This document shows positions 1-19,554 of a stretch of DNA of 64,000 nucleotides, one piece after another. The stretch lies in assembly GCA_965228475.1 (NCBI GenBank), contig OZ245817.1:4096001-4160000 (forward strand), given 5' to 3'. A program made the position numbers and the translations under genes. The notes beneath the pieces are model-generated. The model did not search any database, had not been told where the DNA came from, and was given only the letters and a program-made list of their open reading frames with translations. Origin of the DNA: Myxococcota bacterium. Lineage in GTDB: Bacteria; Myxococcota_A; UBA9160; JAFDDA01. The stretch's first letter is position 1; every line of letters begins with the position of its first letter.

Positions 1-560
1 AGGAAGACCGCGACTTCGACGGCAAGATCGACGCCTGGTCGGTCTTTCGCGGCGGCGAGCTCGCCACACGCGAACTCGACTCCAACGGCGACGGCCAGCG
101 CGACACCTGGGAACACTTCGCGCGCGGCCGCATGACGGCCCGCGAGGTCGACCGCAACAACGACGGCAAGCGCGACGCCTTCTTCGAGTACCAGAACGAC
201 TCGCTCGTCCGCGAGCGTCACGACACCAACTACGACGGCACGATCGACTTCCGCGTCACCTACGCGAACCGCCGGCGCGTGAAGGCGGAAGAGGACGCGA
301 ACAAGGACGGGAAGATCGACACCTGGACGAGCTACATAGCCGTCGAGGACCGCGAGGCCGTCGACCGGATCGAGCGCGACCAGGCCGGCGACGGCAAGGC
401 CGACACCTTCGAGGTCTACGTCCAGACCGGCGGGAAGTCCGTCCTCCAGAAGAAGGAAGAGGACAAGAACGCCGACGGCGAGATCGACATCACCTCGATC
501 TACGAGAACGGCAAGCTCGTCCGCCGGGAGATCAGCGACCCGGCGATGATGCCGCTCTAG
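1..560 (+). CDS. 5'-truncated DxxxDG-repeat (Ca-binding-like) protein
   Basis: Frame of ORF 132..560 stays open back to the window edge (EDRDFDGKIDAW...ELDSNGDGQRDTW); repeated DxNxDGxxD units; stop at 558-560. Confidence 0.75.
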   Translation, partial: EDRDFDGKIDAWSVFRGGELATRELDSNGDGQRDTWEHFARGRMTAREVDRNNDGKRDAFFEYQNDSLVRERHDTNYDGTIDFRVTYANRRRVKAEEDANKDGKIDTWTSYIAVEDREAVDRIERDQAGDGKADTFEVYVQTGGKSVLQKKEEDKNADGEIDITSIYENGKLVRREISDPAMMPL

Positions 561-1186
561 GCGATCTCCTCGGACAGCCGCTCGGGCGCATCGATCGCGA
601 TGTAGCCGCCCTCCAGCCGCACGACGCCACCCGCCACCCAATCCCGCAGGTGTTTGTTCACGCTCTCGCGTGAGGCGCACACCATCGAGCCGAGTTCTTC
701 CTGGGAGATCCGGAGATCGATGCGGACGCCGGAACCGTCGGGCACCCCGAATCGTCTGCGCAGAGCGAGCAGCGTCTTCGCGATCCGCGCCTTCACGTCG
801 AGAAAGGCCTGATCTTCGAGCCGTTCGCCGAGCGCACGGATCCGGCCGGCGAGCACCTCGAGGAGCCGGAACGCCGAGTCGGGATGGCCGCGGACCAGCG
901 CCGTCAGCTCTCCGCCGTCGAGGACCACCAGCTCGCAGTCCTCGAGCGCCGTCGCCGTCGCGGTCCGACGGCCTCCAGAGAGGGCCGAGAGCTCGCCGAC
1001 GAGATCGCCGGGGCCGGCGATCCCGAACACGAATTCCTGGCCCCGGGGCGAAACCGCGCCCAACCGCAGCCGACCCCGCCGCACCACGTAGACCTCGTGG
1101 CCTAGCTGCCCCTTGTGAAAGAGCTCGTCGCGGGCTTTCAGGGCGAGCGTTCGGCTGGGCACCTCGGGACCTCCGGGATCGAGCAT
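557..1186 (-). CDS. Crp/Fnr family transcriptional regulator
   Basis: cNMP-binding cassette GELSALSGGRRTATA; C-terminal HTH ISQEELGSMVCASRESVNKHL. Confidence 0.92.
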   Translation of the reverse strand: MLDPGGPEVPSRTLALKARDELFHKGQLGHEVYVVRRGRLRLGAVSPRGQEFVFGIAGPGDLVGELSALSGGRRTATATALEDCELVVLDGGELTALVRGHPDSAFRLLEVLAGRIRALGERLEDQAFLDVKARIAKTLLALRRRFGVPDGSGVRIDLRISQEELGSMVCASRESVNKHLRDWVAGGVVRLEGGYIAIDAPERLSEEIA

Positions 1187-1208
1187 GGAGCCCGGCGGCC
1201 GGAGACGC

Positions 1209-1224
1209 CGTGAAGCACTTCACA
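1209..1224. promoter_or_regulatory. CRP-type box CGTGA-AGCACT-TCACA upstream of the distal crp
   Basis: 9/10 match to TGTGA-N6-TCACA; spacer identical to the box at 9133; 22 nt from the ATG at 1186; overlaps the stop codon of the upstream crp. Confidence 0.7.
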
Positions 1225-1957
1225 GAGTCGGGGTTTCGCTCGTGCGCCCGGCGCGCGCCGGATCCGCCAGGGCCTCGAGCGGCCCCCGGTCGTGGACGCG
1301 CACGACGCCCGACTCGCTCGAGAGCCAGCCTTCCTGCTCGAAGGCACGCATCTGCTTGTTCACCGCCTCCCGGGTCGCCCCGACGAGGTTGCCGAGCTCG
1401 GTCTGGGACAGCTTGAGGTCGATGCGCAGGCCGTCGGACTCCTCGACGCCGTACTCGTCCGCCAGGGCGAGCAGGGAGCGGGCCAGGCGGTTCGGGAGGT
1501 TGCGGAAGAGCGTGTCCTCCATGACCTCGCTCACGTGAGTGAGGCGCTCGGCCAGGGACGACATGCAGGCGATGGCGATCTCGGGCTGGCGCCGCATCAC
1601 GTCGAGGAGGTCCCGCCGGTGGATCACGAGGAGCTCCGCGGGCGTCAGCGCGGTCACGGTCGCGGTGCGGCGGCCGCCGAAGAGCATCGCGACCTCCCCG
1701 ATGACCTCGCCTTCCTTCATGATCGAGAAGGTGATCTCCCGGCCGTCCTCGGAGGTCGACGCTGCCTTGAGGCTGCCGCGAAGGACGGCGTAGGCCTCGT
1801 TTCCCTCGTCTCCCTTGTGAAAGAGCTCCTCGCGGGCGGCCAGCTTCTTGCGGACGGTCCGCTCGGCGAGCAGGTCGAGTTCGGCCTCGCCGAGCGACGC
1901 GAACACGAAGATCTGCGAAAGCAGCTGACGGCGATCGACGACGGCGGTGTCGCTCAT
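1220..1957 (-). CDS. Crp/Fnr family transcriptional regulator
   Basis: Start MSDTAVVD at 1957 overlaps the upstream stop (ATGA); GEVAMLFGGRRTATV cassette; HTH LSQTELGNLVGATREAVNKQM. Confidence 0.93.
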   Translation of the reverse strand: MSDTAVVDRRQLLSQIFVFASLGEAELDLLAERTVRKKLAAREELFHKGDEGNEAYAVLRGSLKAASTSEDGREITFSIMKEGEVIGEVAMLFGGRRTATVTALTPAELLVIHRRDLLDVMRRQPEIAIACMSSLAERLTHVSEVMEDTLFRNLPNRLARSLLALADEYGVEESDGLRIDLKLSQTELGNLVGATREAVNKQMRAFEQEGWLSSESGVVRVHDRGPLEALADPARAGRTSETPTL

Positions 1958-2364
1958 GGCCCGTCCAGACGATGGTTCCGCCCGGTCACGAGGTAGGCCA
2001 CGCCCGCCACGAGCAGGCCGATGGCCGTCGCACTGGAGAGGTTCACGCCGAAGCACGGCCAGCCGCACTCGGGCGTGGCGAGCGAGATGAACAGCACCGG
2101 AAAGATCACGAGCGCGCCGACGAGCGGCCCGCGCAGCCACCACGGCTCGGGCCAGGTCGAGACCCCGACCCAGAAGCCGACGAGCATCCGCGCCGTGTAG
2201 AACGCCCAGACCATGCGCGAGCCGTCGAGGTAGTGCGTGTCGAACTTGTAGGGGATCGGGCCGTGCAGATACTGCGGCAGCCACCCGAGTGCGATGCCGA
2301 GCACTGCGCAGAGTGCGACGTACGGGACGTTCCGGCGCGCGCCATCCTGCGAGAACTCAGACAA
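1954..2364 (-). CDS. Small integral membrane protein (~4 TM)
   Basis: TTG start at 2364 with GGAGG upstream, overlapping the cfa-family stop; four hydrophobic segments; coupled to crp. Confidence 0.7.
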   Translation of the reverse strand: MSEFSQDGARRNVPYVALCAVLGIALGWLPQYLHGPIPYKFDTHYLDGSRMVWAFYTARMLVGFWVGVSTWPEPWWLRGPLVGALVIFPVLFISLATPECGWPCFGVNLSSATAIGLLVAGVAYLVTGRNHRLDGP

Positions 2365-3496
2365 GCGTTTCCTCCCGAGGCGCCCGGCCGGCGACGAGAT
2401 GATACGCCTGGGTCCGGTTGGTCTCGAGGAACGCCTCCGAGGCACGCAGGAAGACCCGGAAGGCCCGGACCGACTCCTCGCCGAAGCGTTCCGCCAGGGC
2501 CTTCTCTTCCCGCTCCAGCGCGTCCGCCCAGTCGCGACAGGTCCATGCGTAGGAGATCGTGTCGTCGACGAGTTCGTGCACGTTGAAGCCCTGGGCGACG
2601 AGCGCTTCGAGGAGCTTCGGCACGTTCACGTAGCGGGCGGTGCCCGGGAAGATGTAGCGGCCGAGGAACGCGCCGACCTGGAACCCGCTTCGCTCGCTGC
2701 AGAAGTCCGCCCAGAGGCGGCCGTCGTCGCGGAGGTGGGTCGCGAGGAAGCGGGCGGCATAGGCGTAGTCGGTGAAGTGCTCGAAGGTTCCCATGAAGAC
2801 CGCGCCGTCGAAGGGCATGGCGGGCTCGAAGTCGAGCAGGTCGATCCGTTCGACGCAGCAGGGGAGCGAACGCTCGCGAATCAATCCTTCGACGAAACGC
2901 CGCTGTTCCTCCGAGAGCGTGATGCCGTGCACCTCGATTCCGCGGAGTCCGGCGAATTCGAGGAACGAGCCCCAGCCGCAGCCCATGTCGAGCACACGCA
3001 TGCCCGGTTCGAGCCCGAGCGTCTCGATGGCGCGCTCGAACTTGCGGGCCTGGGCCTCCTCGGGAAGATCGTCTTCGGACGCGTAGAGCCCGTGCGAGTA
3101 GGAGCGCCAGCGCTCGAACCAGGGCAGGAAGAACTCGGGCGGGCGATCGTAGTGGAAGGCCACGGACTCGCGCTGCAGGCTGCGGCGGTCGCGGAGCAGG
3201 AGCTGTGCCGCGAAGCGCAGCCGCTCGTAGAGCGAGGGGTCCGGGGCGATCACCTCGGTGAGTCGGATGACTTCGCGGAAGTCCCCTTCGACGTCGATCG
3301 CGCCGTGCAGATAGGCCTCGGCGACGCCGAGCAGGTCCTGCCGCTCGAGGGCGCAGAGCGCCTCGTCTTCGTGGAACACGACCCGCGTTCGCTCCGGGTC
3401 CGGGCCGACCCGGTGGAGCACCTCGCTCTCGTTCTCGAGGGTGAGGTTGGCGCCGGCCTCCGCGAGGGCGTCGATGAGCGGGACGAGGGCGTTCAC
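2357..3496 (-). CDS. Cyclopropane-fatty-acyl-phospholipid synthase family SAM methyltransferase
   Basis: GTG at 3496 overlaps the upstream TGA; AFHYD, LEPGMRVLDMGCGWG, GITLSEEQ, GTFEH and RYIFPG motifs. Confidence 0.88.
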   Translation of the reverse strand: MNALVPLIDALAEAGANLTLENESEVLHRVGPDPERTRVVFHEDEALCALERQDLLGVAEAYLHGAIDVEGDFREVIRLTEVIAPDPSLYERLRFAAQLLLRDRRSLQRESVAFHYDRPPEFFLPWFERWRSYSHGLYASEDDLPEEAQARKFERAIETLGLEPGMRVLDMGCGWGSFLEFAGLRGIEVHGITLSEEQRRFVEGLIRERSLPCCVERIDLLDFEPAMPFDGAVFMGTFEHFTDYAYAARFLATHLRDDGRLWADFCSERSGFQVGAFLGRYIFPGTARYVNVPKLLEALVAQGFNVHELVDDTISYAWTCRDWADALEREEKALAERFGEESVRAFRVFLRASEAFLETNRTQAYHLVAGRAPREETLV

Positions 3497-6400
3497 GCGG
3501 CGCTCTTCGACCCCTCCGGGCGCGTGCGCCGGCGCCGCAGGCGCGCCAGGCCGAGCAGGCCGATCAGCTCGGGGCCGAGCCCGCAGCCACCGGCCTTTTC
3601 CTTCGCAACGTAGGGGTTCCCGTTGCACTGCGGGTCGGGCAGGCCGAAGCCGCCGCCGTCGTAGTCCGTGAAGCCGTCGGCGTCGTTGTCGAGACCGTCG
3701 CTGCAGGCCGGGTCTTCCCGGGCGCCGTCGGGGGCGATGCAGCCCGGATCGCCACCGACGTCGGAGCCGTAGTCGCCGTCGTTGTCCCGGCCGTCGTCGC
3801 ACACCAGCAGGTTCGAGCGCTCGCTCGTGTCCGCACCGTCGTCGCAGCCGGCGTCGGCGAGATCCACGAGGCCGTCGCCGTCGTTGTCGATGCCGTCGCT
3901 GCAGGCGTTGCCGCCTCCGACGTAGGCGCAAAGAGAATCGCAGACGCCATCGATGCCGTTCTGCGAACCGTGGTCGCAGCCTTCTCCGTACTCCTGGATG
4001 CCGTTGCCGCAGCTCTGGCGGTCGCAGGCATCGCCGATGCCGTCGCCATCGACGTCGAGCTGATCGCCGTTGGCGACGTCCTGGCAGTTGTCGATCGGGT
4101 CGGCGAGGCCGTCGCCGTCCGCGTCGGCCGCGGTGGCGATGGTCGTCGTGCCGAGGTCGCAGGTGGCACCTTCGTTGCACTGAGAGTCGTTGTCGCAGGA
4201 GCCGTCGCCGTCGGAGCAGCGGCCGCGCGTCACGTAGCGCTGGCGGCCGTCCTCCGCCTCCTCGAGCGTGGCGAAGAGCGCCTCCGGGTTCAGACCGTCG
4301 TCGACGCAGACCTCGGTGGCCGCGCACTCGGCGTCGGTCAGGCACGGCCCGGTGATGTCCTTGCAGGTGAAGGACCCCGGAACGCCGAGCACGGGGGAGC
4401 AGAACTCGTCCCCGGGGCACGAGTCCGGAACCTCGGGGTTGCAGCCCGAGCCGGTGTCGAAGAGGCAGCCACCCGGCGGGAAGTAGCATTCGCCTCCGCC
4501 CGAGCAGTCGGCATTGCTCGCACAGCCCGCCGCCGTGACGGTGCAGATGCCCGCGACCGCTCCACCGACGATGTCGCACGCGTCCTCCATCGATCCGCCG
4601 GCGATCAACGCCTCCGGGTTGAAGTGCTGGATGACGAGGTTCAACGGCCCGCCGCTCTGGTCGAGGTCGTTCCCGCCCTGCTGGGCCTCGAGCGTGAGGA
4701 AGCTCACCTTCGTGCCGAGGACGCGGTACGGGATGCGCGGATCACAGGCTTCCACCGGGCACGGAATGGCGGCCTGCATGCCGTTGTAGGTGCGGCCCGT
4801 GGACAGGTCCATGACGTGCATGACCGAATCGAAGAGATCGCCGTCCGCCACGCCTCCCACGATCGGCGGCACGACGCCGTTCAGGTTGACCCCCTCCCCT
4901 TCTTCGCTCACCCGGAACGCGATGATGTCCTCTCCGAGGACGAAGTCGTCGACGGCGGGGTTGAAGCGAGCCACGCCCTGGTCGTCGAGGAAGGCGACGG
5001 GCTGTCCGCTGGCGTCGTAGACGTGCAACACGCGGTCGAGCTGATCGCCGTCTCCGTTCAAGGCGGCTCCCTGGTCCGCCTCCGGCACGGTGAAGGCGAC
5101 GAAGCCTCCGACGGTCTGGACGTCGTCCGCGGCCAGGAAAAGGTTCTGCCAGGTCCCGCTCGTTCCCGTCGCCGTGTCGTTCAGATGGACGACGAGGTCG
5201 TCCATGTCGCCATCGCCGTTCAGGAAGAGGCCTTCCTGCGCCTCCGAGGCCAGGGCTGCAACGACCTGACTCGAAACCGCGACCTGATCGGCGGCCAGGG
5301 CCAGGTTCACCGCGGGGCCGGCCTGGCGGTTGCGGTAGAGCTGGACGACGAGGTCGTCGAAGTCGCCGTCGCCGTTGTGGTCGACTCCAGCGCCCGCCGC
5401 GGACTCGTCGGCCAGGAAGGCCGCGTTGCCATCGCGCACGCTGACGGCCTCGGCGCTGCCGAAGCGAAGGACGGTGAAGGGGCCGACCGCCTGCGTGTCC
5501 GCGACCGCGAGCACCGTGTCGCGCGAGTCCCCGTCGCCGTTCAGGTCGTTGCTCGCGCCGTCGAGCGCGGGTTTGCGGAGGTAGCGGCCGCCCGGAAGCA
5601 GCTTGGCGTGGAAGACCGTCTCGGCGTCCCCCTGGATCTGCCCGGAAGTGTCGGGCTGATTGCCGAGTCCGTCGGGGAAAAACGAGAAGATCCTGGTGAC
5701 TCGGTCCACGAACTGCGGAGCGAAGCTCCCGGAAGGATGGCCACCGAAGTAGAAGGGCTGGACGAGTGCGTAGCGGCCGTCCGAAGAGAGCGTGCCTCCC
5801 TGGCTGGGCGTGTCGAAGCCCAGCGTGGAGAGCCCGACCTCCTCGCGCGACACCGTCCCCGGCTCGTCGAAGATGCCGTCGTCGTCGCCGTCCCGATCGT
5901 AGATGACCGCCAACCCGCCGGGCTGCCAGCCCATGATCACGCGGCCGTCGTCGCTCATGTCCGTCGGGATGATCCACTGGGTGTCGAGCAGGGAGGGCGA
6001 GACGAACTCGGCTTCGCCGCTCTCGTCGTAGATTCCGTCGCCATCGAGGTCTCGGTCGAGGATGAAGGCGTCGCTGCGCAGGTTCGTATCCCCCGCGATG
6101 AGGTTCGACGCCGTCGAGCGGAAGAGAACGTAACGGCCGTCGCGAGACATCTCCGCCGGCGTGAACAGGTCGTCGTTGGGCGCCACGCCCACCCCGAGCA
6201 CGGCGTCACTCGCCCGATAGCTCGCGATCGCCCCGGGCTCGTCGTAGATCCCGTCTTCGTCGGTGTCCCGGTCGTGGATGACGAGCTCGCTGTCCAGGAA
6301 CGCGTCGCCAGCGATCATGTTCGTCGCGCTGGAGGCGAAGACCACGAACCTTCCGTCGTCGCTCATGCGCGGACGCGAGGAGCCGTTGTTGGCCTGGACA

Positions 6401-9131: not shown

Positions 9132-9149
9132 CTGTGAAGCACTTCACAG
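9132..9149. promoter_or_regulatory. Perfect CRP-type box CTGTGAAG-CA-CTTCACAG
   Basis: TGTGA-N6-TCACA 10/10 inside an 8-bp perfect inverted repeat; centre ~62 bp upstream of the ATG at 9078. Confidence 0.82.
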
Positions 9150-9239
9150 GAAAGATCGAAAAGTGGGGCGCGAGCCCCCCGAGGAAGTCTGGACGGTGGC
9201 CGTATTGTACTCTCAGGCGGCCCCTCGAGGGACCCTGAG

Positions 9240-9290
9240 TCAGCGCTTTTGGCCGACGCGGGCCCCGATGAGCGGGACGAGGGCGTTCAC
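9240..9290 (-). pseudogene. Relic of the first 8 codons of the cfa-family gene (VNALVPLI, then unrelated sequence to a stop)
   Basis: 9266..9314 is identical to 3472..3520 over 49 bp, covering the giant-gene stop and the coupled GTG start. Confidence 0.7.
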
Positions 9291-12200
9291 GCGGCGCTCT
9301 TCGACCCCTCCGGGTGCATGCGTCGGCGCCGCAGGCGCGCCAGGGCGAGCAGTCCGATCAGCTCGGGGCCGAGCCCGCAGCCCGTGCCTTCCTTGTTCAC
9401 CGAAGCGTTCGGGCATTGCGGGTCCGGATCGCTGAAGCCACCGCCGTCGAAATCGGTGAAGCCGTCGCCGTCGTTGTCCAGACCGTCGCTGCAGGCGGGA
9501 TCCTCGCGAAGCCCGCCCGGGAGGAGGCAGCCCGGGTCACCCCCGACGTCCGCACGGTAGTCCCCGTCGTTGTCCCGGCCGTCGTCGCACACCATCACGT
9601 TCGTGCGCTCGCTCGCGTCGGCCGCGTCGTCGCAACCCGGATCGATCAGATCCACCCGGCCATCGCCGTCGTTGTCGATGCCATCGTTGCACGCGGTTCC
9701 GGCGCCCTCGTAGGCGCAGGCCGCGTCGCACACGCCGTCGATCCCGTTCTGGGCGCCGTGGTCGCACCCCTCGCCGTACTCCTGGACCCCGTTCCCGCAC
9801 ACCTCGCGGTCGCAGGCATCCCCGATGCCGTCGCCATCGATGTCTAGCTGGTCGCCGTTGGCGACGTCCTGGCAGTTGTCGATGGGGTCGGCGAGACCGT
9901 CGCCGTCGGCGTCGGCCGCGGTGGCAATCACGAGGACGTCGAGGTCGCAGGTCGCACCCGCGTTGCACTGGGCATCGCTATCGCAAGACCCATCCCCGTC
10001 CGAGCAACGGCCCCGGGTCACGTAGCGCTGGCGGCCATCCTCTTCCTCGCGGATCGAGGCGAAGAGTTGCTCCGGGTTCGACTGGTCCGCGACGCAAACC
10101 TCGGATGCGGAGCACTCATCGTCCGTCAAGCACGGGCCGGTGAATTCCTGGCAGGTGAACGTTCCCGGAGAACCAGGCTGAGGTGCACAGAACTGACTAC
10201 CGCTGCAAGTCACGGGGTTCTCCGGTGCACAGATCGTCCCGGTGTCGGAGAGGCAGCCGCCGGGTGGGAAGTAACAGGTGCTCCCTCCGGTGCAGTCGAG
10301 ATCGCTCGCGCAGCCTTCGCCCGTCGCGGTGCAGAACCCCCCGATGGCTCCGCCGAGGATGTCGCACGCGTCTCCCATCGGCGCCCCAGCAGCCAAGGCA
10401 CCGGCGTTGAAGTGCTGGAGCACGAGGCTCAGAGGCCCCCCGCTCTGGTCCAGGTCGTTTGTCCCCTGCTGCGCCTCGAGGGTGAGGAAGGTGACCTTGT
10501 CGCCCAGAACGCGGTAGGGGACACGCGGATCGCAGGCTTCGACCGGGCACGGAATCGCCGACTGGTTCGAGTTGTAGGTGCGGCCGGTCGCCAGGTCCAT
10601 CACGTGGATCACGGCGTCCAGCAGGTCGGCGTCGGCGACCCCACCGGGAATAGGCGGAACCACGCCGTTGAGATTGACGCCCTCCCCCGCCTCACTGACC
10701 CGAAAGGCGATGATCTGCTCACCCAGGACGAAATCCTCGACTGCGGGGTTGAAGCGCGGTGCGCCAGTTTCGTCGAGGAAGAGAACGGGCTGGCCGGCCC
10801 CATCGTAGACGTGCAGCACGCGGTCGAGCTGATCACCGTCGCCGTTCAGCGCGGCACCTTGGTCAGCCTCCGGGACGGTGAATGCGACGTAGTCACCCCG
10901 GGCCTGAACGTCGTCCGCCGCCAGGAAGAGACTCTGCCAGGTCGCATCGGTGCCGGTTGCCGTGTCGTTCAGGTGGACGACGAAGTCGTCCATGTCGGCA
11001 TCGCCGTTGAGGAACAGGCCTTCGCCGGCCTCGGAGACCAGAGCTGCGACCCACGCGTCCGAAACCGCGACCTGCGATGCCGCCAGGCCGAGGTTGACGG
11101 GACTCCCGACCTGCCGGTTCCTCCACAGGTGGACGACCGAGTCGTCGAAGTCGCTATCGCCATTGAGATCGAGGACCGGATCGGCGGCTTCGTCGCGGAG
11201 CCAGACGGCCGTCCCGTCCGCAATCTGCACGTCCTCGCCCGGGCCAAGGAAGGCCGCGGCTGGCATCGCGGCCTGGGTGTCGAGAACCGAGAGCAGCACG
11301 TCCTCGGCGTCCCCGTCGGAGTTCAGGTCGGCACCGAGATCGAAGCGATCGACCGTCGAGATCATCAGCGTATCGTTGTCGTTGAAGGGCGCGATGGTGT
11401 CCCGCACCACGATGCTGGTGGCATCCGCCGAGACGGGCATCATCCAGGGCCCATCGGCCAGACCCAGGACCAGCGCGTTCCCCCGGAGGCCGGTCTCGAA
11501 ATCGGCGGTCTCGATCCCGAAGCGGGTGAAGCCGACCCGTCGTCCCGATGGATCGAGGCCCAACGCTTGATCGTCGACGACGCCGAGATCCACGATGTCG
11601 ATGCCGTCCGATTCGTCGAAGACACCGTCCTCGTCCGCGTCGCGGTCGACGACGATCGCAGCGACGCACGAGGTGAAGGGACACTCACCGTTCGCGAGGA
11701 AGCTCACGAAGCGCCCGTCGTCGGAGACGTCTGTGAGCTCGACGACGTTGCTCACCCCGGGAAGGGGCATGATCGAGGACACGATGGTCGCGGCGGTGAT
11801 CGTCCCTGGCTCGTCCAACAACCCGTCGTCGTCGGAGTCGCGGTCGAAGACGACCACTTCCGCGTTCACGTTGAGGAAGGCCGCGATGAATCGACCATCC
11901 GGCGTCATCTTGAGCGGCCGATTCGTGGTCGGCAGACCCAGGCCGGCCTCCGTGCCGAGGTCGATCACGACGTTCGGCGGAGCGATCTCATCGTAGATCC
12001 CGTCGCCATCGGGGTCTCGATCGGTGACGAAGACTCCACCGACGAATCCGCCGCCAACCTCGTTTCCGCGCAGGGCGGCGACGTGGCGCCCATCGGACGA
12101 GATCTGCGGAAACACGGTCGCGAAGATCGGCACCGCGAAGTCGAGCAGCGTGGTCGTCGGCAGCCCGGGGCCGGGCCCCTCGTCGAAGATGCCGTCCTCG

Positions 12201-14908
12201 TCGGGGTCCCGGTCTCGCACGTAGACGTCGAAGTTCCCGTCGACGTCGCCCGGCCCGAGGGATCGCGTCGCGAGAGCGAGATGGCGCCCGTCGTCACTCA
12301 GGTCTGCGCCGCCGAAGGTGTAGATGGGGAACGGGTCGCAGATGCCGATGCAGCCGATCTCTGCCCCGGTGTCGGAGAGGCTTTGCCTCGTGATCTCGGT
12401 GGCGCCGGCCTCGTCCAGGATGCCGTCCGCGTCGGTGTCGCGATCCAGCACGAAGTGATCGGGGTCGAAGTTGGTGTCCCCAGCGACCAGGTTGTCGGCA
12501 TCGCTCTCGAAGATCAGGAATCGACCATCGGGCGTGATGTCCCCCGGGAAGGTCATCGAGTTCGGAGCCGGTTCGGGCGACAGCACGACGGTGCTCCGGA
12601 CCGCCGAGTCGAGCTCCGAGCTGCGGTAGAAGAGCAGACCGTCAGAAAGGCGTAGCGGCGCGTCTGCCACCTCCGGGAGGGCGTCGAGTGCCGGGGGCGT
12701 GCCCGTCACGAGCGCGACGGGAGACCCAGCCTCCAGCCGGAAGGCGCGGAGTACGCCATCGACCGTGTCTCCGTCGAGAGTGGAGTCGGAATCGCCCTCG
12801 CCGTACTCGGACTCGACCATCGCCAGGACGTCACCTTCGACGTCGAAGGCCGGGAAGCGGTAGGGGAACACGCGGACCCGCGTGCTTGCACGCCCCGCGG
12901 CGCCCGGAGCGCCGATCTCGACGACCTCGCCCGTTTCGGCGTCGACCATCGAGACGATCGTGGTGTCGTCCTGGTCGCCGTCCAGGTTGAGGTCTGCCGA
13001 CTCGAGGGGCTCGGACCGGACGAACATGAACAGATCGTCGTTGGCGACGAGGCCATCGATCGCTGCCGGGTTCGCTGCCTCGGCCGTGTAGTCGACGCTC
13101 GACAGCAGGACCGGGCCCGTCCCCCCCGCGGAGTAGCGATCGCTGAAGTCGAAGTTCGAGGGTCCGCACTCCCCGCCCGGGCAGGCGCCGTCGCCCGAGC
13201 AGACCAACCCGTCCCGGCTTCCGCCGCGGCAGCGCGCCCGGACGCAGGTCGAAGCCGGGCACTCGAAGTCCGCGATGCAGGCCAGAGCGCCTCGCGGACC
13301 ACCGGCACACTCCTTGAACTCAGGACTCCGGCGAAGAACCCGGATCACTCCGATCTCGGCGTCCGTGGAGCCGAACAGGGTGGTGTCGGAACTCTGGGGG
13401 TCGGAAATCGGGTTGAACAGCGGATCGACCCGCAGCCCTTTCTGGGAAAGCGACTGCAGGAAGCGCAACCCGGGTACCTGGATGGGCGCACCGAGTGTCT
13501 GATTGACCTCCGGTGGGGTGCCCGTGAACGCGGCTACGGAGGTACTGACGCTCACGAGCCGGGGAATGGGCAGGGTCCGGGGCTGAACGAGGACCCCGCG
13601 CCAGTCCACCGGCACGACGACGTTGCCCTCTGCATCGGTCGTGAACTGGACGTCGACACCGCTGTTGTTGCAGCTGACGGAAGGATTGGTTGCGGTGCAG
13701 ATGTCCTGGAAGTCGTTGGGTGCGGGAAGCGCCGTCAGCCCGGCGAACTGTGGGTGGGCGTTCGCGGCGTCGGTCTCACAGGTCCCGTCCTGCGCGTAGA
13801 TCTCGTCCGTACACGCGATGAGACCGGCCGCGGGGCCGAGGTCCGCGCAGCGGTTCGTTGCCAGTTCGCACGGCAACGGACCGCCATCGAAGGTCACCGC
13901 GACGGAGACGGGACCGGCGAAGGACGTTGCCGGGAAGTCCAGAGTCAGCCGATCCGTCGTCGCCGTGATCGCCGGATCCTCGACGCAGGTGGGCATCGGC
14001 CCGCCGAGCTCGGCGCCGCAAGCCGCCAGCTCTGCGGCCATGGCGGCGCAACCCCCGGCGACGGGAGTGACCACCACGGCGTTCGAGGGTCCGGCGGGCG
14101 GCTCGAAGACGAAGGTCACCACGTTGGGCGTGCTCGTCGATTCTTGGAGCGTCAGGTTGTCGATGCCGTAGGAATCGCATGAAGCGTCGCCCAGCTCGCC
14201 GAGGATGAGGACGCTGCTGACGTTCGAGAGCACCTGGTCCCACGTCTCGGCGCCCGCCGCGAGGCTCCAACCGGGCGGCGGACTGCTGCCCGGCGCGACG
14301 GGAATGCTGAAGCTCCCCCAGCTCCCGACGGGAATCGCGTCGATCTCGGCCTGTGAGGGCTCGTACTGGTAGGTGGTTCCAGCTCCGGAAAGGACTCGAA
14401 CGAGCGGGATCGGCACCGTCAGACGGGCGCCTCCGCAAAGACTCACGATCTGGTGGTCCCACGCAATGCCGGTGACACCACGCGCGATCCAGTCGCCGTC
14501 CCAGCTCGAGGGCGCGCTGACACCGGCGTCGGTCGTCGGTGCGATGTCCTGGCCGAACACATGGCCATCGGGGTTGCCACCGGGCGATTGCCAGAAGAAC
14601 AGGTCGTGGAAGCCGCTCACCAACCAGCCCTCGAGATCCGCCGCGAACGGGCTGACCAGCGGGCTGGGCATGCTGTTCGGGAAACTCGTGCCCGCCTCGC
14701 AGCCGGCGGGGGCATCGTCGAGCGAAACCACGAGTGGATCGCCGGCGCTCGCGTACACGCGGTTCAGGCTTCCGACGGCGCCGCGGAACTCGGTCTCGGG
14801 TTGGGGAATGACGTCGCAATACGACACGGCGGGGGTCGGCTGGAGGACGAGGACCAGGGCGACCGCCACGGCCGCCCGAAGAGAGGTGGTGCGAACGGAG
14901 ATCTTCAT
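9287..14908 (-). CDS. Giant secreted surface protein, paralog 2 (same architecture, GCGLGPEL-TM-RRRR tail)
   Basis: Start MKISVRTT at 14908; shares SYCDVIPQPETEFRGA, VDWRGVLVQPRTLPIPRLV and AIPCPVEACDPR blocks and the C-terminus with paralog 1. Confidence 0.85.
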   Translation of the reverse strand: MKISVRTTSLRAAVAVALVLVLQPTPAVSYCDVIPQPETEFRGAVGSLNRVYASAGDPLVVSLDDAPAGCEAGTSFPNSMPSPLVSPFAADLEGWLVSGFHDLFFWQSPGGNPDGHVFGQDIAPTTDAGVSAPSSWDGDWIARGVTGIAWDHQIVSLCGGARLTVPIPLVRVLSGAGTTYQYEPSQAEIDAIPVGSWGSFSIPVAPGSSPPPGWSLAAGAETWDQVLSNVSSVLILGELGDASCDSYGIDNLTLQESTSTPNVVTFVFEPPAGPSNAVVVTPVAGGCAAMAAELAACGAELGGPMPTCVEDPAITATTDRLTLDFPATSFAGPVSVAVTFDGGPLPCELATNRCADLGPAAGLIACTDEIYAQDGTCETDAANAHPQFAGLTALPAPNDFQDICTATNPSVSCNNSGVDVQFTTDAEGNVVVPVDWRGVLVQPRTLPIPRLVSVSTSVAAFTGTPPEVNQTLGAPIQVPGLRFLQSLSQKGLRVDPLFNPISDPQSSDTTLFGSTDAEIGVIRVLRRSPEFKECAGGPRGALACIADFECPASTCVRARCRGGSRDGLVCSGDGACPGGECGPSNFDFSDRYSAGGTGPVLLSSVDYTAEAANPAAIDGLVANDDLFMFVRSEPLESADLNLDGDQDDTTIVSMVDAETGEVVEIGAPGAAGRASTRVRVFPYRFPAFDVEGDVLAMVESEYGEGDSDSTLDGDTVDGVLRAFRLEAGSPVALVTGTPPALDALPEVADAPLRLSDGLLFYRSSELDSAVRSTVVLSPEPAPNSMTFPGDITPDGRFLIFESDADNLVAGDTNFDPDHFVLDRDTDADGILDEAGATEITRQSLSDTGAEIGCIGICDPFPIYTFGGADLSDDGRHLALATRSLGPGDVDGNFDVYVRDRDPDEDGIFDEGPGPGLPTTTLLDFAVPIFATVFPQISSDGRHVAALRGNEVGGGFVGGVFVTDRDPDGDGIYDEIAPPNVVIDLGTEAGLGLPTTNRPLKMTPDGRFIAAFLNVNAEVVVFDRDSDDDGLLDEPGTITAATIVSSIMPLPGVSNVVELTDVSDDGRFVSFLANGECPFTSCVAAIVVDRDADEDGVFDESDGIDIVDLGVVDDQALGLDPSGRRVGFTRFGIETADFETGLRGNALVLGLADGPWMMPVSADATSIVVRDTIAPFNDNDTLMISTVDRFDLGADLNSDGDAEDVLLSVLDTQAAMPAAAFLGPGEDVQIADGTAVWLRDEAADPVLDLNGDSDFDDSVVHLWRNRQVGSPVNLGLAASQVAVSDAWVAALVSEAGEGLFLNGDADMDDFVVHLNDTATGTDATWQSLFLAADDVQARGDYVAFTVPEADQGAALNGDGDQLDRVLHVYDGAGQPVLFLDETGAPRFNPAVEDFVLGEQIIAFRVSEAGEGVNLNGVVPPIPGGVADADLLDAVIHVMDLATGRTYNSNQSAIPCPVEACDPRVPYRVLGDKVTFLTLEAQQGTNDLDQSGGPLSLVLQHFNAGALAAGAPMGDACDILGGAIGGFCTATGEGCASDLDCTGGSTCYFPPGGCLSDTGTICAPENPVTCSGSQFCAPQPGSPGTFTCQEFTGPCLTDDECSASEVCVADQSNPEQLFASIREEEDGRQRYVTRGRCSDGDGSCDSDAQCNAGATCDLDVLVIATAADADGDGLADPIDNCQDVANGDQLDIDGDGIGDACDREVCGNGVQEYGEGCDHGAQNGIDGVCDAACAYEGAGTACNDGIDNDGDGRVDLIDPGCDDAADASERTNVMVCDDGRDNDGDYRADVGGDPGCLLPGGLREDPACSDGLDNDGDGFTDFDGGGFSDPDPQCPNASVNKEGTGCGLGPELIGLLALARLRRRRMHPEGSKSAA

Positions 14909-14958
14909 GGTTGCGTCCCTCGTCATGGACGGAGCTTCCGCGATCTTCGCCGGTAGCT

Positions 14959-14976
14959 CTGTGAACCACTTCACAG
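14959..14976. promoter_or_regulatory. Perfect CRP-type box CTGTGA-ACCACT-TCACAG
   Basis: TGTGA-N6-TCACA 10/10; centre ~60 bp upstream of the ATG at 14908; flanks conserved with the 9132 site. Confidence 0.82.
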
Positions 14977-15059
14977 GAGACCCGGAAAGTCGGGTCCCCG
15001 AAGGAAGAGCGCCCTGGGGCCGCATTGTACCTGGGCGCGGGGGTCTCATGGACCGCGGG

Positions 15060-18000
15060 TCAGGCCCGGGGGCCGCGCAGTCCCATTCCGGCTAGTGCAC
15101 GATCGACCCGCTCGACCTCCGGGAGCATCCCGAGCGCCTCGGCTTCGGCGCGGGCCCGGAGCCACCAGCGGCGGGCGCCCCGGGCATCGCCGATGAGCGA
15201 ACGGCGCGTTCCTTCGAGGCGCTGGATCTCGGGCCGGCGCAGGGCCACCCAGCCTCCGGCGCGCAGCGCTTGCCGGGCGACCCTGCGCGCGAGCTGCCGG
15301 TCTCCCCGGCCCTCCGCGAGGGCATCGAGCTCGCACAGCAGCCGGGAGCGCAGCACGACCGCCTTGTGGAAGGGAGGCACGAAGGCGGTCGCCTCGGAGA
15401 GCAGCGACTCCGCGGCGGTCAGGCTGCGCTCGGCCTCCTCCCGCCGCCCGAGGCCCAGCTGGGCCTTCGCCTTGTTCCCGAGAGCCAGGAGGTTCGGGAG
15501 CGGGTCCGGCTGCTCGCTGAAGTGCGCCTCGGCCGCCTCGATCGCCCGCTCCCATTCTTCCCGCTCGAGCGCCAGGAACGTCTCGAGCGCCCGCACCGTG
15601 GCCTTCGCCTGCTCGAACTGGAAGAGTTCGGCCACATGCTCGAGGCGCGCGATCCCCGTGCGCGCCTCCTCGAACCGGCCCTGCATGATGCGGCGCTCGG
15701 TCTGCAGGCCCAGGTAGTTGGTGACGTCGAAGAGCTGGCCGTCGCGGATCCGGTCCTCGAGGAAGTCGACGGGCAGCTCGTGTGCCGCGCTCCAATCGCC
15801 GGCCAGCGTTTGGTGGGTGGCATTCATCATGCCGTAGATCATGCGCTCTTCCGGGTCGTCGGCGTCCACGAGTTCCCGGGCCTGGGCGAGGAACCGCTCG
15901 CTGATGGCGAAGGAGACGCCGCCGAAGGAGAAGATCCCGACGCTCGATGCGAACTGTCCGCCGGCGAGCGGAAGCGTGCGCGGGTCGACGTCTCCCAGGC
16001 GACGCACGGCGTCCATCCAGTCGAAGAGGTAGCGGTCCGTCGCGTTCGTCGTCTGCGCGCGCGCGCGCTCGTAGACGAGCTCCTGGATCTGGCGTTCCGT
16101 TTCCGTCGCCCCGCGACGCGCCCTCCCGAAGCGGCGGAAGTAGACGCGGCCGAGGATCAGCGCGAGGTCGCGCACGAGGCGGAGGTTGCGGCGAATCGGC
16201 TGCTTCGCTCCGACCACGCCATGGCATTCGAGCGCCGCGTCGAAGTGGAGGATGGCCTCGGCATAGCGGCCGCGGTTCACGAGAGCCAGGGCCATGTTCC
16301 GCTCGAGCAGGCCGAGCTTCTCCGAGCGGTCTTCCTCACCGTGGAGATTGCGGAACAGGGCGGCGGCGTCCTCGAAGAAACGCAGTGCCTCGTCCGATGC
16401 CGCGGAGCGCGCCGCTTCGTCGCCGGCCGCGAACAGGTGGTGCTCGGCGCGCTCCACGTCCCCCGCACGACTGAAGTGGTGCGCGAGCATCGCGTGGGCA
16501 CCGGGCTCGTCGCCGTCGAGCCGCGCCTCGACGGCGCGGCCCACCTGGCCGTGCAGCTCGCTGCGCCGGCCCTCGAGCATCGAGTCGTAGACGACCTCCT
16601 GGATCAAGGGATGCTTGAACTGGAACTCGCCGGCTCGCCCTTCGCGGCGTTCGATCATCTCCGACGTCTCGAGGCGCGCCAGGTCGCCCTCGACCGCGCG
16701 GCCCTCCACATCGGCGAGGACATCGCCCTCGAAGGCGAAGCCGATCGCCGACGCGACGCGCAGGAGGTCGCGCCCCTCCCGGCCGAGACGGTCCACGCGG
16801 GCCATCACGACCTCCTGGAGGGTTCCGGGGACGGCGACCTCGTGGATCCGGGGCGTCGCGACGAGTCGGCCGCCGCGCTCTTCGAGCGCGCCGGCGTCCC
16901 GCAGGCCGCGGACGACCTCCTCGGCGTAGAAGGGGTTCCCCGTCGCCCTTTGTTCGATCGCCGTGCGGAGCGCGTGGGGCACGTCGGCGCCGCGGAACAG
17001 GTTGCGCAGGAGCTCCATCGAAGCGCCGGCATCGAGGGGCGCGAGGGTGATCTCGGTGTAGGCCTCGGGCAGGCGCTCCCGCGCCGCCGCGCGCACGCGG
17101 TCTGCGGTCTCGGGCCAGCCCGGGCGAGTCACCAGCAGGAAGAGGATCGGCTCGGTCTCGGCGAGCCGCAGCAGGCTCGTGAGCAGCTCGATCGACGACG
17201 CGTCGGCCCAGTGCAGGTCCTCGAAGACCAGGGCCACCGGCTCCCGCCTGGCCATTCCCTGGAGCGTGCGCGTGATGGCCGCGAGGAGCAGCGGCTCGAG
17301 GGCCTCCGGAGCCAGGCGTTCGAAACGCTCACGTTCCTCCTCCGGGAGCGGCGCGCCCAACAGCGTCGAGAGGAAGGGAACGACCTCCTCCGCCTCGCTT
17401 CCGAGCTCCGCGGCCGCCGTGCGCGTGAGCTTCTCGGCGAGAGCGGCCTTGGGCTCGTCGTCGTCCGCGCCGCACCAATCGGCGAACAGGTCCGCGAAGG
17501 GGTGATGGCCGAGCGTCCTTCCGTTCGAGAGCGAGCGTCCCTTGAGCCAGCGGAAGCCCCGTGCCTCCGCAGGGAGCGCCTCCGCGAGCAGGCGGGACTT
17601 GCCGATCCCGGCTTCGGCCACGACCGAGACGATGCCGCCGGTTCCTGCCGCGAGCTCGCGCGTGGCCCGGTTCAGCGCGGCGAGCTCCGCATCGCGACCG
17701 ACGAGGACCGAGCGCACGCGCCCGGGCGCCGACGGCGTCGAACGGTGGAGCTTCGTCGTCTCCGAGCGCAGCTCGTAGGCGGCCTCGCCGTCCGCCCCGA
17801 CCGGCGCATAGTCGAAGTCGTCCCGGGTCGCGCGCGCCGTCTCTTCCCCGACGAAGATGCTCCCGGGCGGCGAGAGGTCTTCGAGCCGCGCGGCACCGCT
17901 GACGGACTCGCCCATCAGCGAGTACTCGCGGATGAGCGGACCGCTCACCTCCCCCGCGATCCCGAGGCCCGTATCGATTCCGATGTGGATCCCGAAGGGA

Positions 18001-19508
18001 GAAGCGAGTCCGCGTTCTTCGTTGAAGGTGGCGACGGCCCGTCGCATCTCGATGCTGGCATTGATGGCCGCGCGCGGCGCATCCTCGATCGAGACCGGAA
18101 CGCCGAAAACCGCCATCACGCAGTCGCCGAGGTACTTCTCGACGGTTCCACCGTGGCGGCGCGCGATCCCACTCAGGCGGTCGAGGCAGTCACTCACCAG
18201 GGGATGCAGGGCGTCGGCCTCCATGCTCTCGGCGAGCGCGGTGAACCCGGAGAGATCCGCGAAGAGCACGGTGGCGCGGCGGCGCTCGGCGTCGTCCGCG
18301 CGCTCGCTGTAGTCGGAAGCGCGCGCTTCGTCCGCCTGGAGCGTCTCCGCGAGGAAGGCCGACTGGATCGCGCGGCCCGGGTTGCCGGCGGCGCGGCGCA
18401 CCACCAGGGCCCGTGCTTCGGGTTCGAGGACGTGTTCGGGTAGTGCGTCGACCAGGGCACCGATGGCCGCGTCGTCGAGCGGTCCAAGGGCAAGCTCGAG
18501 CGGGTCTTCTCCGATCGCCCGGGCCCGCTCGACCGCCTTCGCGGCGGCGTCCGGGAGAGGCGAACGTCCCGCGACGAAGACGAGCGTCGAAGGCGGAAGA
18601 TCGGCCAGAACCGCGGCGAGATCCGTGCGCCGGCCGCCGTCGTCGACGACGAAGATCCCGCCCTCTACCGAGGGCATGCGGGAACCGGCGGGCGGCAGCG
18701 CGCGGATCCTCCGTTCCGGGTGGCGCCTCGTCAGCTCGAGCAGCAAACGGGACTTCCCGGCACCGGGGGGCCCCTCGATCGCGACGAGACCGCCCTCCCC
18801 GGCCGCCTGGCGATGCACGCGCGCGTCGAGCTGCGCGAGTTCGGCTTCCCGCCCGACGAACGGGGCGTAGCTCGCTACTTCGGCGCCGAAGGGCGCGTCG
18901 TCGTCGCGCTGCGCTTCCAGGATCTCTCGGGGCCGGGCGAGGTCCCGCACGCCCTGGAGCTTCACGGCCCCGACTTCCCGCATCACGAAACGGTTGCCGA
19001 GGAGCGCCGCGAGGCCGGCGCCGGCGTAGACCGTGCCGGCGGGTGCGAGCGATTTGATCCGGGCGGCGTGGTTTACGCACCGGCCGAGCACCGAGAACTC
19101 GCGAACCACCGAGTCGCCGAGCGCCCCGGCGAGAACCGGACCGGCCTCGAGGCCGACCTTCACGTCGAGGTCGACCGGCAGCTCGATCCGCTCGGCGACC
19201 TCCCGGACCGAGAGGCGCATCTCGAGGGCGGCCCGGGCCGCCGCCGCAGCCGCTTCCGCGGGCGTGAGCGGAAAGCCGAAGACGGCCATGAGGCAGTCGC
19301 CGAGGTACTTGTCGACGGCGCCACCGTGGCGGCGCGCGACGTCGTCGAGGATGCGCAGGCAGCGCGTGACCACCAGATAGGCTTCGTCGGCCCCGCGAGC
19401 CCGGGCGAGCGCCCCGAACCCGACGATGTCGGCGAACAGGATGCTCGCTTCCCGGTAGCTCGCGCTCCCCCCGGCGCGCTCGGGCGCGCTCTCCTCGGCT
19501 CCGGACAT
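15060..19508 (-). CDS. Class III adenylate/guanylate cyclase-STAND ATPase-TPR protein with two cyclase domains
   Basis: ILFADIVGF..DKYLGDC..VNHAAR; GPPGAGKS; VLFADLSGF..EKYLGDC..VSGAAR; AEAGIGKS, FEDLHWAD, GNPFY; helical C-terminus. Start 19508 (ATG) or 19544 (TTG). Confidence 0.9.
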   Translation of the reverse strand: MSGAEESAPERAGGSASYREASILFADIVGFGALARARGADEAYLVVTRCLRILDDVARRHGGAVDKYLGDCLMAVFGFPLTPAEAAAAAARAALEMRLSVREVAERIELPVDLDVKVGLEAGPVLAGALGDSVVREFSVLGRCVNHAARIKSLAPAGTVYAGAGLAALLGNRFVMREVGAVKLQGVRDLARPREILEAQRDDDAPFGAEVASYAPFVGREAELAQLDARVHRQAAGEGGLVAIEGPPGAGKSRLLLELTRRHPERRIRALPPAGSRMPSVEGGIFVVDDGGRRTDLAAVLADLPPSTLVFVAGRSPLPDAAAKAVERARAIGEDPLELALGPLDDAAIGALVDALPEHVLEPEARALVVRRAAGNPGRAIQSAFLAETLQADEARASDYSERADDAERRRATVLFADLSGFTALAESMEADALHPLVSDCLDRLSGIARRHGGTVEKYLGDCVMAVFGVPVSIEDAPRAAINASIEMRRAVATFNEERGLASPFGIHIGIDTGLGIAGEVSGPLIREYSLMGESVSGAARLEDLSPPGSIFVGEETARATRDDFDYAPVGADGEAAYELRSETTKLHRSTPSAPGRVRSVLVGRDAELAALNRATRELAAGTGGIVSVVAEAGIGKSRLLAEALPAEARGFRWLKGRSLSNGRTLGHHPFADLFADWCGADDDEPKAALAEKLTRTAAAELGSEAEEVVPFLSTLLGAPLPEEERERFERLAPEALEPLLLAAITRTLQGMARREPVALVFEDLHWADASSIELLTSLLRLAETEPILFLLVTRPGWPETADRVRAAARERLPEAYTEITLAPLDAGASMELLRNLFRGADVPHALRTAIEQRATGNPFYAEEVVRGLRDAGALEERGGRLVATPRIHEVAVPGTLQEVVMARVDRLGREGRDLLRVASAIGFAFEGDVLADVEGRAVEGDLARLETSEMIERREGRAGEFQFKHPLIQEVVYDSMLEGRRSELHGQVGRAVEARLDGDEPGAHAMLAHHFSRAGDVERAEHHLFAAGDEAARSAASDEALRFFEDAAALFRNLHGEEDRSEKLGLLERNMALALVNRGRYAEAILHFDAALECHGVVGAKQPIRRNLRLVRDLALILGRVYFRRFGRARRGATETERQIQELVYERARAQTTNATDRYLFDWMDAVRRLGDVDPRTLPLAGGQFASSVGIFSFGGVSFAISERFLAQARELVDADDPEERMIYGMMNATHQTLAGDWSAAHELPVDFLEDRIRDGQLFDVTNYLGLQTERRIMQGRFEEARTGIARLEHVAELFQFEQAKATVRALETFLALEREEWERAIEAAEAHFSEQPDPLPNLLALGNKAKAQLGLGRREEAERSLTAAESLLSEATAFVPPFHKAVVLRSRLLCELDALAEGRGDRQLARRVARQALRAGGWVALRRPEIQRLEGTRRSLIGDARGARRWWLRARAEAEALGMLPEVERVDRALAGMGLRGPRA

Positions 19509-19554
19509 GACGTCAAGGGTGTCATGCCCGGCCGGCACTTCCAAGCGCCGCCCT

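Follow-up and report, generated by a model that had tools for sequence, protein, structure and literature searches.

The stretch of DNA analysed here (the window) comprises 64,000 nt of a Myxococcota bacterium (GenBank assembly GCA_965228475.1, contig OZ245817.1, positions 4,096,001 to 4,160,000) and carries a gene block in which a cyclase-STAND protein lies together with a putative lipoprotein N-acyltransferase (Lnt)-like enzyme, two giant secreted proteins, a cyclopropane fatty acid (CFA) synthase-like enzyme, a small membrane protein and two Crp regulators. We compared this block, whose host genome (G000) measures 5.0 Mb with 70% GC, with a congener (G001), with a sample of 146 genomes, each at least 85% complete, in which the Crp, cyclase, giant and Lnt families were counted, and with 41 genomes of the host's order that served for box counts; L numbers denote loci. 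The features of the block are as follows.

557-21114: the inserted block as a whole (crp2 through lnt), which G001 does not have between the corresponding flanking genes
19567-21114, plus strand: dedicated Lnt-like N-acyltransferase, divergent from the cyclase gene (TIGR00546, over cut-off)
15060-19508, minus strand: tandem cyclase-STAND protein of 1482 aa (Pfam PF00211 twice and PF13191 twice, residue table, model, hydropathy)
15024-15029, minus strand: conserved TACAAT hexamer upstream of the giant 2 box, with its other copy upstream of the giant 1 box at 9204-9209
14960-14975: Crp box before giant 2, with a predicted -10 element GAAGCT at 14938-14933 in class II spacing
9287-14908, minus strand: giant 2, secreted Cys-rich protein of 1873 aa with a signal peptide and an X-C-D-V-I-P mature start
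9266-9290, minus strand: duplication scar from sequence alignment, the first 25 nt of the cfa gene past the giant 2 stop
9133-9148: Crp box before giant 1, with a predicted -10 element GAAGCT at 9111-9106
3493-9078, minus strand: giant 1, secreted Cys-rich protein of 1861 aa (sequence, model), heading the giant1-cfa-membrane-crp1 run
2357-3496, minus strand: CFA-synthase-like S-adenosylmethionine (SAM) methyltransferase of a module-specific subfamily (PF02353)
1954-2364, minus strand: small membrane protein of 3-4 helices with C100-G-W-P-C104, the Cys version in a putative selenoprotein family with a CxxxU motif (U, selenocysteine)
1220-1957, minus strand: Crp1, recognition helix REAVNK, member of an order-wide Crp family by family comparison
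1209-1224: Crp box over the crp1 stop codon, with a predicted -10 element CATGCT at 1187-1182, a putative internal promoter for crp2
557-1186, minus strand: Crp2, a diverged member of the Crp1 family without the N-terminal helix, taken from the ATG at 1186

In G001 the two genes flanking the block sit ~210 bp apart and 557-21114 (20.6 kb) is missing; because the flanking genes adjoin there, the interval behaves as one block absent from the congener. No such Crp, no giant or cyclase orthologue and no extended Crp box were found in G001, a genome that is 89% complete. The seven co-oriented genes lie on the minus strand where the initial annotation had placed them, in the order cyclase-STAND (19508-15060), giant 2 (14908-9287), giant 1 (9078-3493), CFA-like (3496-2357), membrane protein (2364-1954), Crp1 (1957-1220) and Crp2 (1186-557), and the three start/stop overlaps reported to join giant 1, cfa, the membrane gene and crp1 were borne out by the sequence (GTGA at giant1/cfa, 8 nt at cfa/membrane gene with a TTG start preceded by GGAGG, and ATGA at membrane gene/crp1). 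The genes listed for the cluster are all present; its extent had been drawn too narrowly, leaving out the divergent lnt-like gene at 19567-21114, which is part of the block. Gene order was shuffled between the loci of relatives.

The cyclase-STAND protein runs from cyclase domain A (~20-200) through a truncated P-loop module (~215-390), cyclase domain B (~410-590) and a full STAND module (~600-1000) to a helical-repeat sensor, and hydropathy gave no transmembrane segment. It had been described as a cyclase-STAND-TPR protein: the cyclase and STAND assignments held, with two cyclase domains and two P-loop modules in place of a single set, and the TPR assignment was not borne out by Pfam, which found none in the window protein and a TPR_2 or TPR_12 match in 3 of 46 homologues. 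The STAND motifs were present, with invariant K637 and D764 for Walker A and Walker B, G857-N-P859 for the GxP motif and a FKHPL segment for the winged helix. Class III cyclases rely on two metal-binding Asp, a substrate Lys and a transition-state Asn and Arg. In our set of 44 aligned cyclases (33 two-domain, 8 one-domain and 3 left out by a length and gap filter), domain A of the two-domain forms kept Asn and Arg in 33/33 and Lys in 30/33, domain B kept both metal Asp in 33/33, Asn in 2/33 and Arg in 11/33, and the one-domain forms kept Asn and Arg in 8/8; the composite site of the window protein is complete, with the Asp pair from domain B and K67, N146 and R150 from domain A. Because the two domains divide the catalytic residues in this way, they are predicted to pair within the chain as a pseudo-heterodimer with a single active site. 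The model of residues 1-620 (predicted template modelling score, pTM, 0.78) matched human soluble adenylyl cyclase 4CLF across both domains (386 residues, root-mean-square deviation 3.8, Z 25.9) and 6YII (367 residues, deviation 3.3). One-domain forms mostly branch earlier (FastTree only; three changes needed), and the two-domain architecture appears to have arisen by duplication of a cyclase-plus-NTPase unit. A candidate from G006 was excluded from the cyclase set, as it aligns over residues 587-1474 alone and starts with an unrelated N-terminal part.

The Lnt-like protein scored 244 bits against the TIGR00546 cut-off of 132.9 and has the membrane domain; its Glu-Lys-Cys triad (E283, K345, C393) was invariant in 26/26 Lnt-like proteins, with no in-frame TGA at the catalytic Cys, and two other lnt genes occur in G000. 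A TATAAT at ~19554-19559, ~7 nt before the lnt GTG, suggests a leaderless transcript. Of the 146 genomes, 29 had the cyclase subfamily (28 when G006 is left out) and 27 the giant, with 24 having both; G136 has a diverged giant that the query did not catch. Module-type Lnt was present in all 28 cyclase genomes (27 at E <1e-85, one as a split fragment) and, as a fragment, in one further genome; six genomes whose matches were weaker (37-40% identity) were kept out of the module type, and G137, with a 73% fragment, was tallied separately. Of 29 cyclase loci, 22 contained the Lnt gene, at a distance of no more than 12 bp in 13, and contig ends truncate several of the others; it was also found in 15 of 16 metagenome loci reaching the cyclase. 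Furthermore, three genomes with giants and without the cyclase (G031, G075, G127) were also without module Lnt. Counted by tblastn, which undercounts diverged giants and HEAT-cNMP genes (cNMP, cyclic nucleotide monophosphate), 14 of the 29 cyclase loci contained a giant, 9 contained cfa and 4 the membrane gene. Among 251 genomes across the phylum, module Lnt occurred only within the class, in 11, and in G180 the giant, cyclase and lnt genes stand in a row. The conserved core therefore appears, from these family and locus comparisons, to be the STAND cyclase plus its dedicated Lnt, usually with a giant and often with a CFA-like methyltransferase.

At L034:13435-16500, L033, L124, L128, L134 and L179, the cyclase-lnt pair has as its neighbour a membrane protein of 1000 aa that combines HEAT repeats with a cNMP-binding domain; by locus count it flanks the cyclase in 5/29, and it may be an alternative receptor for cNMP. 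Genes for B12-binding radical SAM proteins, along with a second CFA-like subfamily, also recur beside lnt or the cyclase (L108:7770-9398, L119:2729-4297, L135, L142, L146, L149, L181) and add to the lipid-tailoring theme.

The TGTGA-N6-TCACA boxes previously reported at 1209-1224 (9/10), 9133-9148 and 14960-14975 (both 10/10) were confirmed, together with their near-identical spacers (AGCACT, AGCACT and ACCACT, respectively) and the ~60 bp separating the giant boxes from the ATGs (box centre to ATG, 62.5 and 59.5 nt). They are the only matches at ≤1 mismatch in the 64 kb, where 0.34 ± 0.59 were expected and 1 of 100 shuffles reached three. The genome-wide scan that the initial annotation had proposed showed the box to be rare (4 perfect and 17 with ≤1 mismatch in 5.0 Mb), and the 41 genomes of the order held 146 perfect cores against 11 reversed-pattern controls. 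The extended box reads TGTGAA-N4-TTCACA, as does every perfect core in G012 (9/9) and G033 (7/7). Class II promoter spacing is established knowledge for Crp-type activators. From the fetched loci we took 41 oriented sites with a gene start 35-115 nt away and scored a -10 element as A and T four bases apart: in 28 of them the A/T pair started 23 or 24 nt past the box, compared with 200 of 4000 random anchors (5%). Because the pair starts at this distance, the box centre would lie at -41.5/-42.5, the class II activator position, with transcription starts placed from the -10 motif. All three window boxes and a further site, C1:786149, fit this spacing, and class II activation by a Crp-type protein is described in the accessible part of PMC10127613. 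The reading of the boxes as Crp control sites thus gains support from the activator position (28/41 relative sites, 3/3 window boxes), and the box is very probably a Crp-family activator site. A repressor reading, prompted by the TACAAT hexamers upstream of both giant boxes, was dropped because class II spacing was found; these hexamers are possibly a second, box-independent promoter.

A matrix built from 50 sites outside G000 returned five sites of ≥18 bits in G000 and none in the reversed genome: those of both giants and crp2, and a tandem pair at G000:C1:786120 and 786149, 29 bp apart (~-70.5 and ~-41.5), before an 826-aa CGLGxE-tailed surface protein (786120-788711) that we regard as a probable regulon member outside the cluster. 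Of the five strongest sites in the genome, two lie 3.3 Mb away, and strong boxes are not confined to the cluster. Two other sites, G000:C1:4737514 and 322157, also precede sorted-protein genes; class II spacing fails at both, and they were rejected as full regulon sites and kept as weak members. In the window, boxes stand before giant 2, before the giant1-cfa-membrane-crp1 run and before crp2, and none stands before the cyclase or lnt gene. In relatives they were found before giants (G012, G033, G039, G134), before the cfa gene (G050) and directly after the cyclase (G033), and crp or its operon is boxed upstream in G012, G027, G033, G039, G014 and G038. Within one family (L068-L071, in G012, G033, G027 and G039) a conserved box separates a DUF3604 gene from a P450-crp operon. 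With 19 perfect cores and 35 extended boxes at ≤1 mismatch, G038 has the largest apparent regulon of the 41 genomes. At L107 (G008:C10:5000-24999), a cluster of other cyclase-STAND genes has two boxes between them.

The recognition helices REAVNK and RESVNK were as reported, and the proposed likeness to the mycobacterial RETVNK Crp (Rv3676) was upheld, the best PDB match of Crp1 being the RETVNK protein 3d0s. Both Crps have the phosphate-binding cassette G-E...R-T/S and an R-E recognition helix. The start of crp2 may be the GTG at 1162 (after GGAGG, giving 201 aa), because the predicted -10 element overlaps the ATG at 1186. With regard to a distant global CRP that might serve the boxes, the two local Crps are the sole members of their family in G000, and they are not sisters. 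The family is order-wide (111 of 146 genomes, mostly in single copy), and other boxed genes in the order are dispersed and varied (P450, transporters, proteases, a lipoxygenase). In 24 of the 27 other cyclase genomes a family member is present, always on a different contig from the cyclase, and among 80 metagenome loci, picked through their cfa gene, two (L145, L150) have a Crp next to the module.

These data bear directly on the form of the proposal in the initial annotation, a self-contained circuit in which two local Crps serve only this cluster. That the whole block is a single insertion relative to G001, a genome without such a Crp, cyclase, giant or extended box, that three of the five strongest sites lie inside the cluster, and that Crp adjoins the module at L145 and L150 all speak for it; the order-wide Crp family with dispersed and varied targets, the strong tandem boxes before an unlinked sorted surface protein, and the 89% completeness of G001 speak against, and we consider this version improbable. 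What stands of it is the locality, as all parts came in one inserted block; what does not is self-containment as a conserved design. Likewise, the expected co-occurrence in relatives was found for cyclase and giant (24 genomes with both) and not for Crp, which lay beside the cyclase in none of 29 relative loci. The circuit would thus be local in G000 and dispersed in the order.

Giant 1 and giant 2 share 55% identity, their upstream regions align, and a 25-nt cfa stub follows giant 2; promoter, box and giant were therefore duplicated together, and the suggestion that the 9133 and 14960 boxes share ancestry was confirmed. Giant 2 has a laminin-IV/carbohydrate-binding-module-like insert, TolB-like propeller repeats and a C-terminal CGLGxE-transmembrane-RRR tail. 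Fold assignments come from a model of giant 1 that covers 964 of its 1861 residues, in which the laminin-IV-like insert matched at Z 14.9 and the TolB-like blades at Z 12.6, the conserved core (~residues 225-735 of the model) being barely covered by the fold comparison. A match to CylK (Z 11.3) was taken as a generic propeller, and ESM Atlas gave no usable match for the giant N-terminal part. In each of the 29 relative giants listed, X-C comes right after a signal peptidase I site of AxA type, the motif on which the listing was selected; their C-termini are variable, many without an anchor. A lipobox reading of the N-terminal Cys was rejected, the preceding residue being highly variable. In G000, ~14 proteins end in a CGLGxE-helix-RRR tail (in the window at 60025-62607, 3493-3620 and 9287-9410), beside ~90-100 PEP-CTERM-like tails, and a CPBP-type protease candidate is encoded at C1:3377044-3377703. 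No NCBIfam sorting-signal model scored over cut-off on the CGLGxE tail and the MYXO-CTERM model was not matched; the tail is possibly an unmodelled Cys-containing sorting signal.

The CFA-like protein has the SAM motif and a lipid-binding N-terminal domain and matches 7qos, 5z9o and 6bqc over its full length, with all CFA equivalog scores under cut-off. CFA synthase binds bicarbonate through Cys, Glu, His and Tyr. In the module subfamily YSH replaces YSC and WADF replaces the LLHT-type motif, so that the conserved Cys is His and the conserved His is Asp in 8/8 proteins; because of these replacements the reaction of the CFA-like enzyme may differ from that of CFA synthase.

The small membrane protein matched no Pfam or NCBIfam family, and ESM Atlas returned unnamed clusters only, commonest in Myxococcota and Binatota. 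Its second motif Cys, codon 104 (2055-2053), is TGC in the window copy and TGA in 13 homologues: among 26 distinct homologues (one truncated row left out of the count) the codon was TGA in 13 and TGC in 13, and homology continues past the TGA. In 13/13 TGA forms a hairpin of 9-11 bp follows that fits the model for the bacterial selenocysteine insertion sequence (loop 16-37 nt after the UGA, G at the loop start) as given in the accessible part of PMC13188914. Its energy was -13.8 to -17.5 kcal/mol in the TGA forms vs -3.6 to -11.7 in 12 Cys forms, 97.5% of its positions were paired, three pairs were changed on both sides, and none of 500 shuffles reached its pairing score, a result inflated by related rows. 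The selA gene was found in all four genomes of our numbered set with a TGA form and was not found in G035, which has the Cys form. The window copy is not itself a selenoprotein (TGC), though G000 has selA and tRNA-Sec. Several database homologues stop at 91-100 aa, as expected from truncation at the UGA. The protein is thus a candidate for a previously unlisted selenoprotein family on sequence grounds, and its CxxxC/U motif is predicted to face outward.

Giants, Lnt, CFA-like enzyme and membrane protein could alternatively make up a production cassette, in which cyclase and Crp act as in the reading we prefer (below) and the other three proteins mature the giant: Lnt would act on its free X-Cys end and acylate it with no need for Lgt or Lsp, and the many disulfides of the giant would be handled by the membrane protein. 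The shared AxA site and X-C start of the 29 motif-selected giants, many of them without a C-terminal anchor, would suit this arrangement, as would the loci in which lnt, giant and membrane gene occur together without the cyclase (G017:C54, G030:C148) and the outward-facing motif, itself a prediction. However, G031, G075 and G127 have giants and no module Lnt, and cyclase-lnt loci without a giant are found at L029, L033, L124, L128 and L134; moreover, lnt is unboxed in G000 while the giants are boxed, and the giants, which carry a signal peptidase I site, are without the lipobox of the apolipoproteins on which Lnt acts, although substrates could be encoded elsewhere. We judge the cassette unlikely.

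The reading we prefer, which as a whole chain falls only slightly short of an even call, is that of a mobile cAMP module with a constitutive sensing arm, a Crp-activated output arm and Lnt on the input side. The division into a constitutive and an induced arm is proposed because boxes precede the giants, cfa, the membrane gene and the crps, and not the cyclase or lnt. A ligand would bind the helical sensor and switch the STAND module, upon which the cyclase pair would close and produce cAMP (cGMP also possible); Crp would then turn on the giants, the lipid methyltransferase, the Cys/selenocysteine membrane protein and crp itself in positive feedback. The Lnt-like enzyme would make or modify the acylated molecule read by the sensor, which is the most conjectural step, and the CFA-like enzyme would tailor its acyl chain. 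In most relatives the module would borrow the host's single Crp, and here the block would have brought its own, the congener being without one. That the cyclase feeds the Crp at the boxes seems to us somewhat probable, and if it does, an input role for Lnt is an even call or slightly better, favoured because Lnt tracks the cyclase more tightly than it tracks the giant.

Several observations weigh against the mobile cAMP module with its two arms. Kin genomes are not independent, and the 41 oriented sites had been picked for matching the box. A box with ≤1 mismatch lies upstream of 6/29 relative giants, and with ≤2 mismatches upstream of 8/29; together with the absence of Crp beside the cyclase in 29 relative loci, this indicates that Crp control of the output is not universal, and 3 of the 27 other cyclase genomes gave no match to this Crp family. 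At the adenine-specificity positions of the cyclase the Lys is kept and the second position is S in the window protein and H/A/S/R/N in the family. The T127/S128-type adenine contacts, a role given in the accessible part of PMC10127613, are V-S in Crp1, L-G in Crp2 and mostly L/V-S in the family, so the Crp ligand may not be strictly cAMP; the nucleotide is uncertain because the T127 position is mostly L or V and the second specificity position of cyclase A is variable. The lnt gene stands with giant and membrane gene, with no cyclase seen in the locus, in G017:C54 and G030:C148. The catalytic domain of Lnt faces the periplasm, while the sensor here is cytoplasmic. Finally, G000 has 14 further class III cyclase frames.

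Those 14 frames would also suit an arrangement in which the many other cyclases fill a common cNMP pool that Crp senses, the output of the STAND cyclase goes to a different target, such as the HEAT-cNMP membrane protein, and only an accident of transfer placed the two together here. At least 83 of the 111 Crp genomes are without this cyclase, and 21 of 29 relative giants are without even a 2-mismatch box, as this arrangement would allow. Set against it are the boxes before giants, before cfa and directly after the cyclase in the five relatives named above (G012, G033, G039, G134 and G050), and three separate acquisitions of Crp by the module (window, L145, L150); it strikes us as a poor prospect.

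The module is patchily distributed among the 146 genomes and sits in an inserted block, as an anti-phage or anti-predator system of NLR type might be, in which the sensor would recognise an invader protein and cAMP-Crp would remodel the cell surface. STAND sensors often recognise phage proteins, according to the accessible part of 10.64898/2026.01.04.697583; the same text has defence and non-defence STAND clades interspersed. Furthermore, the PADLOC matches were to generic cyclase, cNMP-binding and methyltransferase domains only, the module is without a nuclease, TIR or other toxic effector, and the neighbourhoods inspected held mostly metabolic genes. A defence role is accordingly very improbable.

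Cyclase-STAND proteins are common in genomes, with inputs and outputs that are mostly unknown. Like the module protein, the SWACOS-type STAND adenylyl cyclases, which include human ADCY10 (4CLF) and mycobacterial cyclase-NB-ARC proteins, set a class III cyclase before a STAND NTPase and helical repeats. Unlike these types, the module protein has cyclase domains split by a truncated second P-loop module, no LuxR domain and an obligate Lnt-like partner. SWACOS is used as the name of a STAND clade in the portion of 10.64898/2026.01.04.697583 available to us. The CyaD1/D2/K-Clr-NsrA system of Sinorhizobium meliloti likewise joins a cyclase to a Crp-like activator, and Clr acts at class I/II positions on targets that are mostly secreted hypothetical proteins (PMC10127613, PMC7529298, both as far as accessible); its cyclases are inner-membrane-associated with an outer-membrane receptor input, whereas that of the module has no membrane segment and a cytoplasmic STAND sensor. 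With the actinobacterial CRP/GlxR proteins (Rv3676, 3d0s) and class II E. coli CRP the module Crps share the cassette, the R-E helix, the TGTGA-N6-TCACA core and the -41.5 position, and they differ in the extended box, a small regulon (5 strong sites) and V or L at the T127 equivalent. The module Lnt shares the catalytic triad, membrane domain and over-cut-off score of Lnt (TIGR00546); unlike canonical Lnt, its subfamily has CNE for CYE, two other lnt genes accompany it in the genome, and the module has no constant lipobox protein. The MerT-like (PF02411) and YeeE/YedE (PF04143) selenoproteins resemble the membrane protein in small size, selenocysteine/Cys alternation and a hairpin after the UGA, but the module family is without a Pfam or NCBIfam match and its CGxxU (CxxxU) motif is absent from the table rows seen of the 2026 review PMC13188914. 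MYXO-CTERM and JDVT-CTERM have, like the giant tail, an invariant Cys, a transmembrane helix and a basic tail (accessible part of 10.1101/2023.06.07.544157); the giant tail differs in reading CGLGxE, in a charged residue in the helix and in matching no NCBIfam model. Pycsar and Avs use a toxic cNMP-gated or STAND-fused effector, and the module does not, its cNMP receptors being full transcription factors.

A full-text literature search, with most subscription papers and supplements outside it, returned no description of the module, the cyclase-STAND/Lnt link or the selenoprotein; supplementary STAND clade tables and large selenoprotein predictions may hold these families. The module offers a candidate input partner in the dedicated Lnt-like enzyme and a defined output in class II Crp promoters with a derived motif. 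It would also be a clear case in which a homodimeric cyclase has turned, within a STAND protein, into a pseudo-heterodimer with one site, a parallel to mammalian soluble cyclase; in addition, it points to an Lnt paralogue with a non-canonical role and to a family of selenoproteins that gene callers cut off at the UGA. A wider proposal, which we regard as unlikely taken jointly, is a new lipid-signal system in which an NLR-like single-chain cyclase reads a lipid or N-acyl signal from its own Lnt-like and CFA-like enzymes, the membrane selenoprotein gives thiol/selenol chemistry, and cAMP-Crp autoinduction switches on the giants. If true, this would be a new kind of signalling in uncultured Myxococcota- and Binatota-type bacteria.

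Elsewhere in the window, three winged-helix STAND-TPR regulators (36488-39553, 49951-53046 and 53043-56198) lie close to small PEP-CTERM-like genes, and regulators of similar type stand before boxed giants or crp at L028, L139 and L140. A frame of 1837 aa at 26577-32090 is without a Pfam or NCBIfam match. The frames at 42251-42730 and 62627-63421 have a common C-terminal sequence, which suggests partial duplication of a desaturase-like gene, a label given as an impression.

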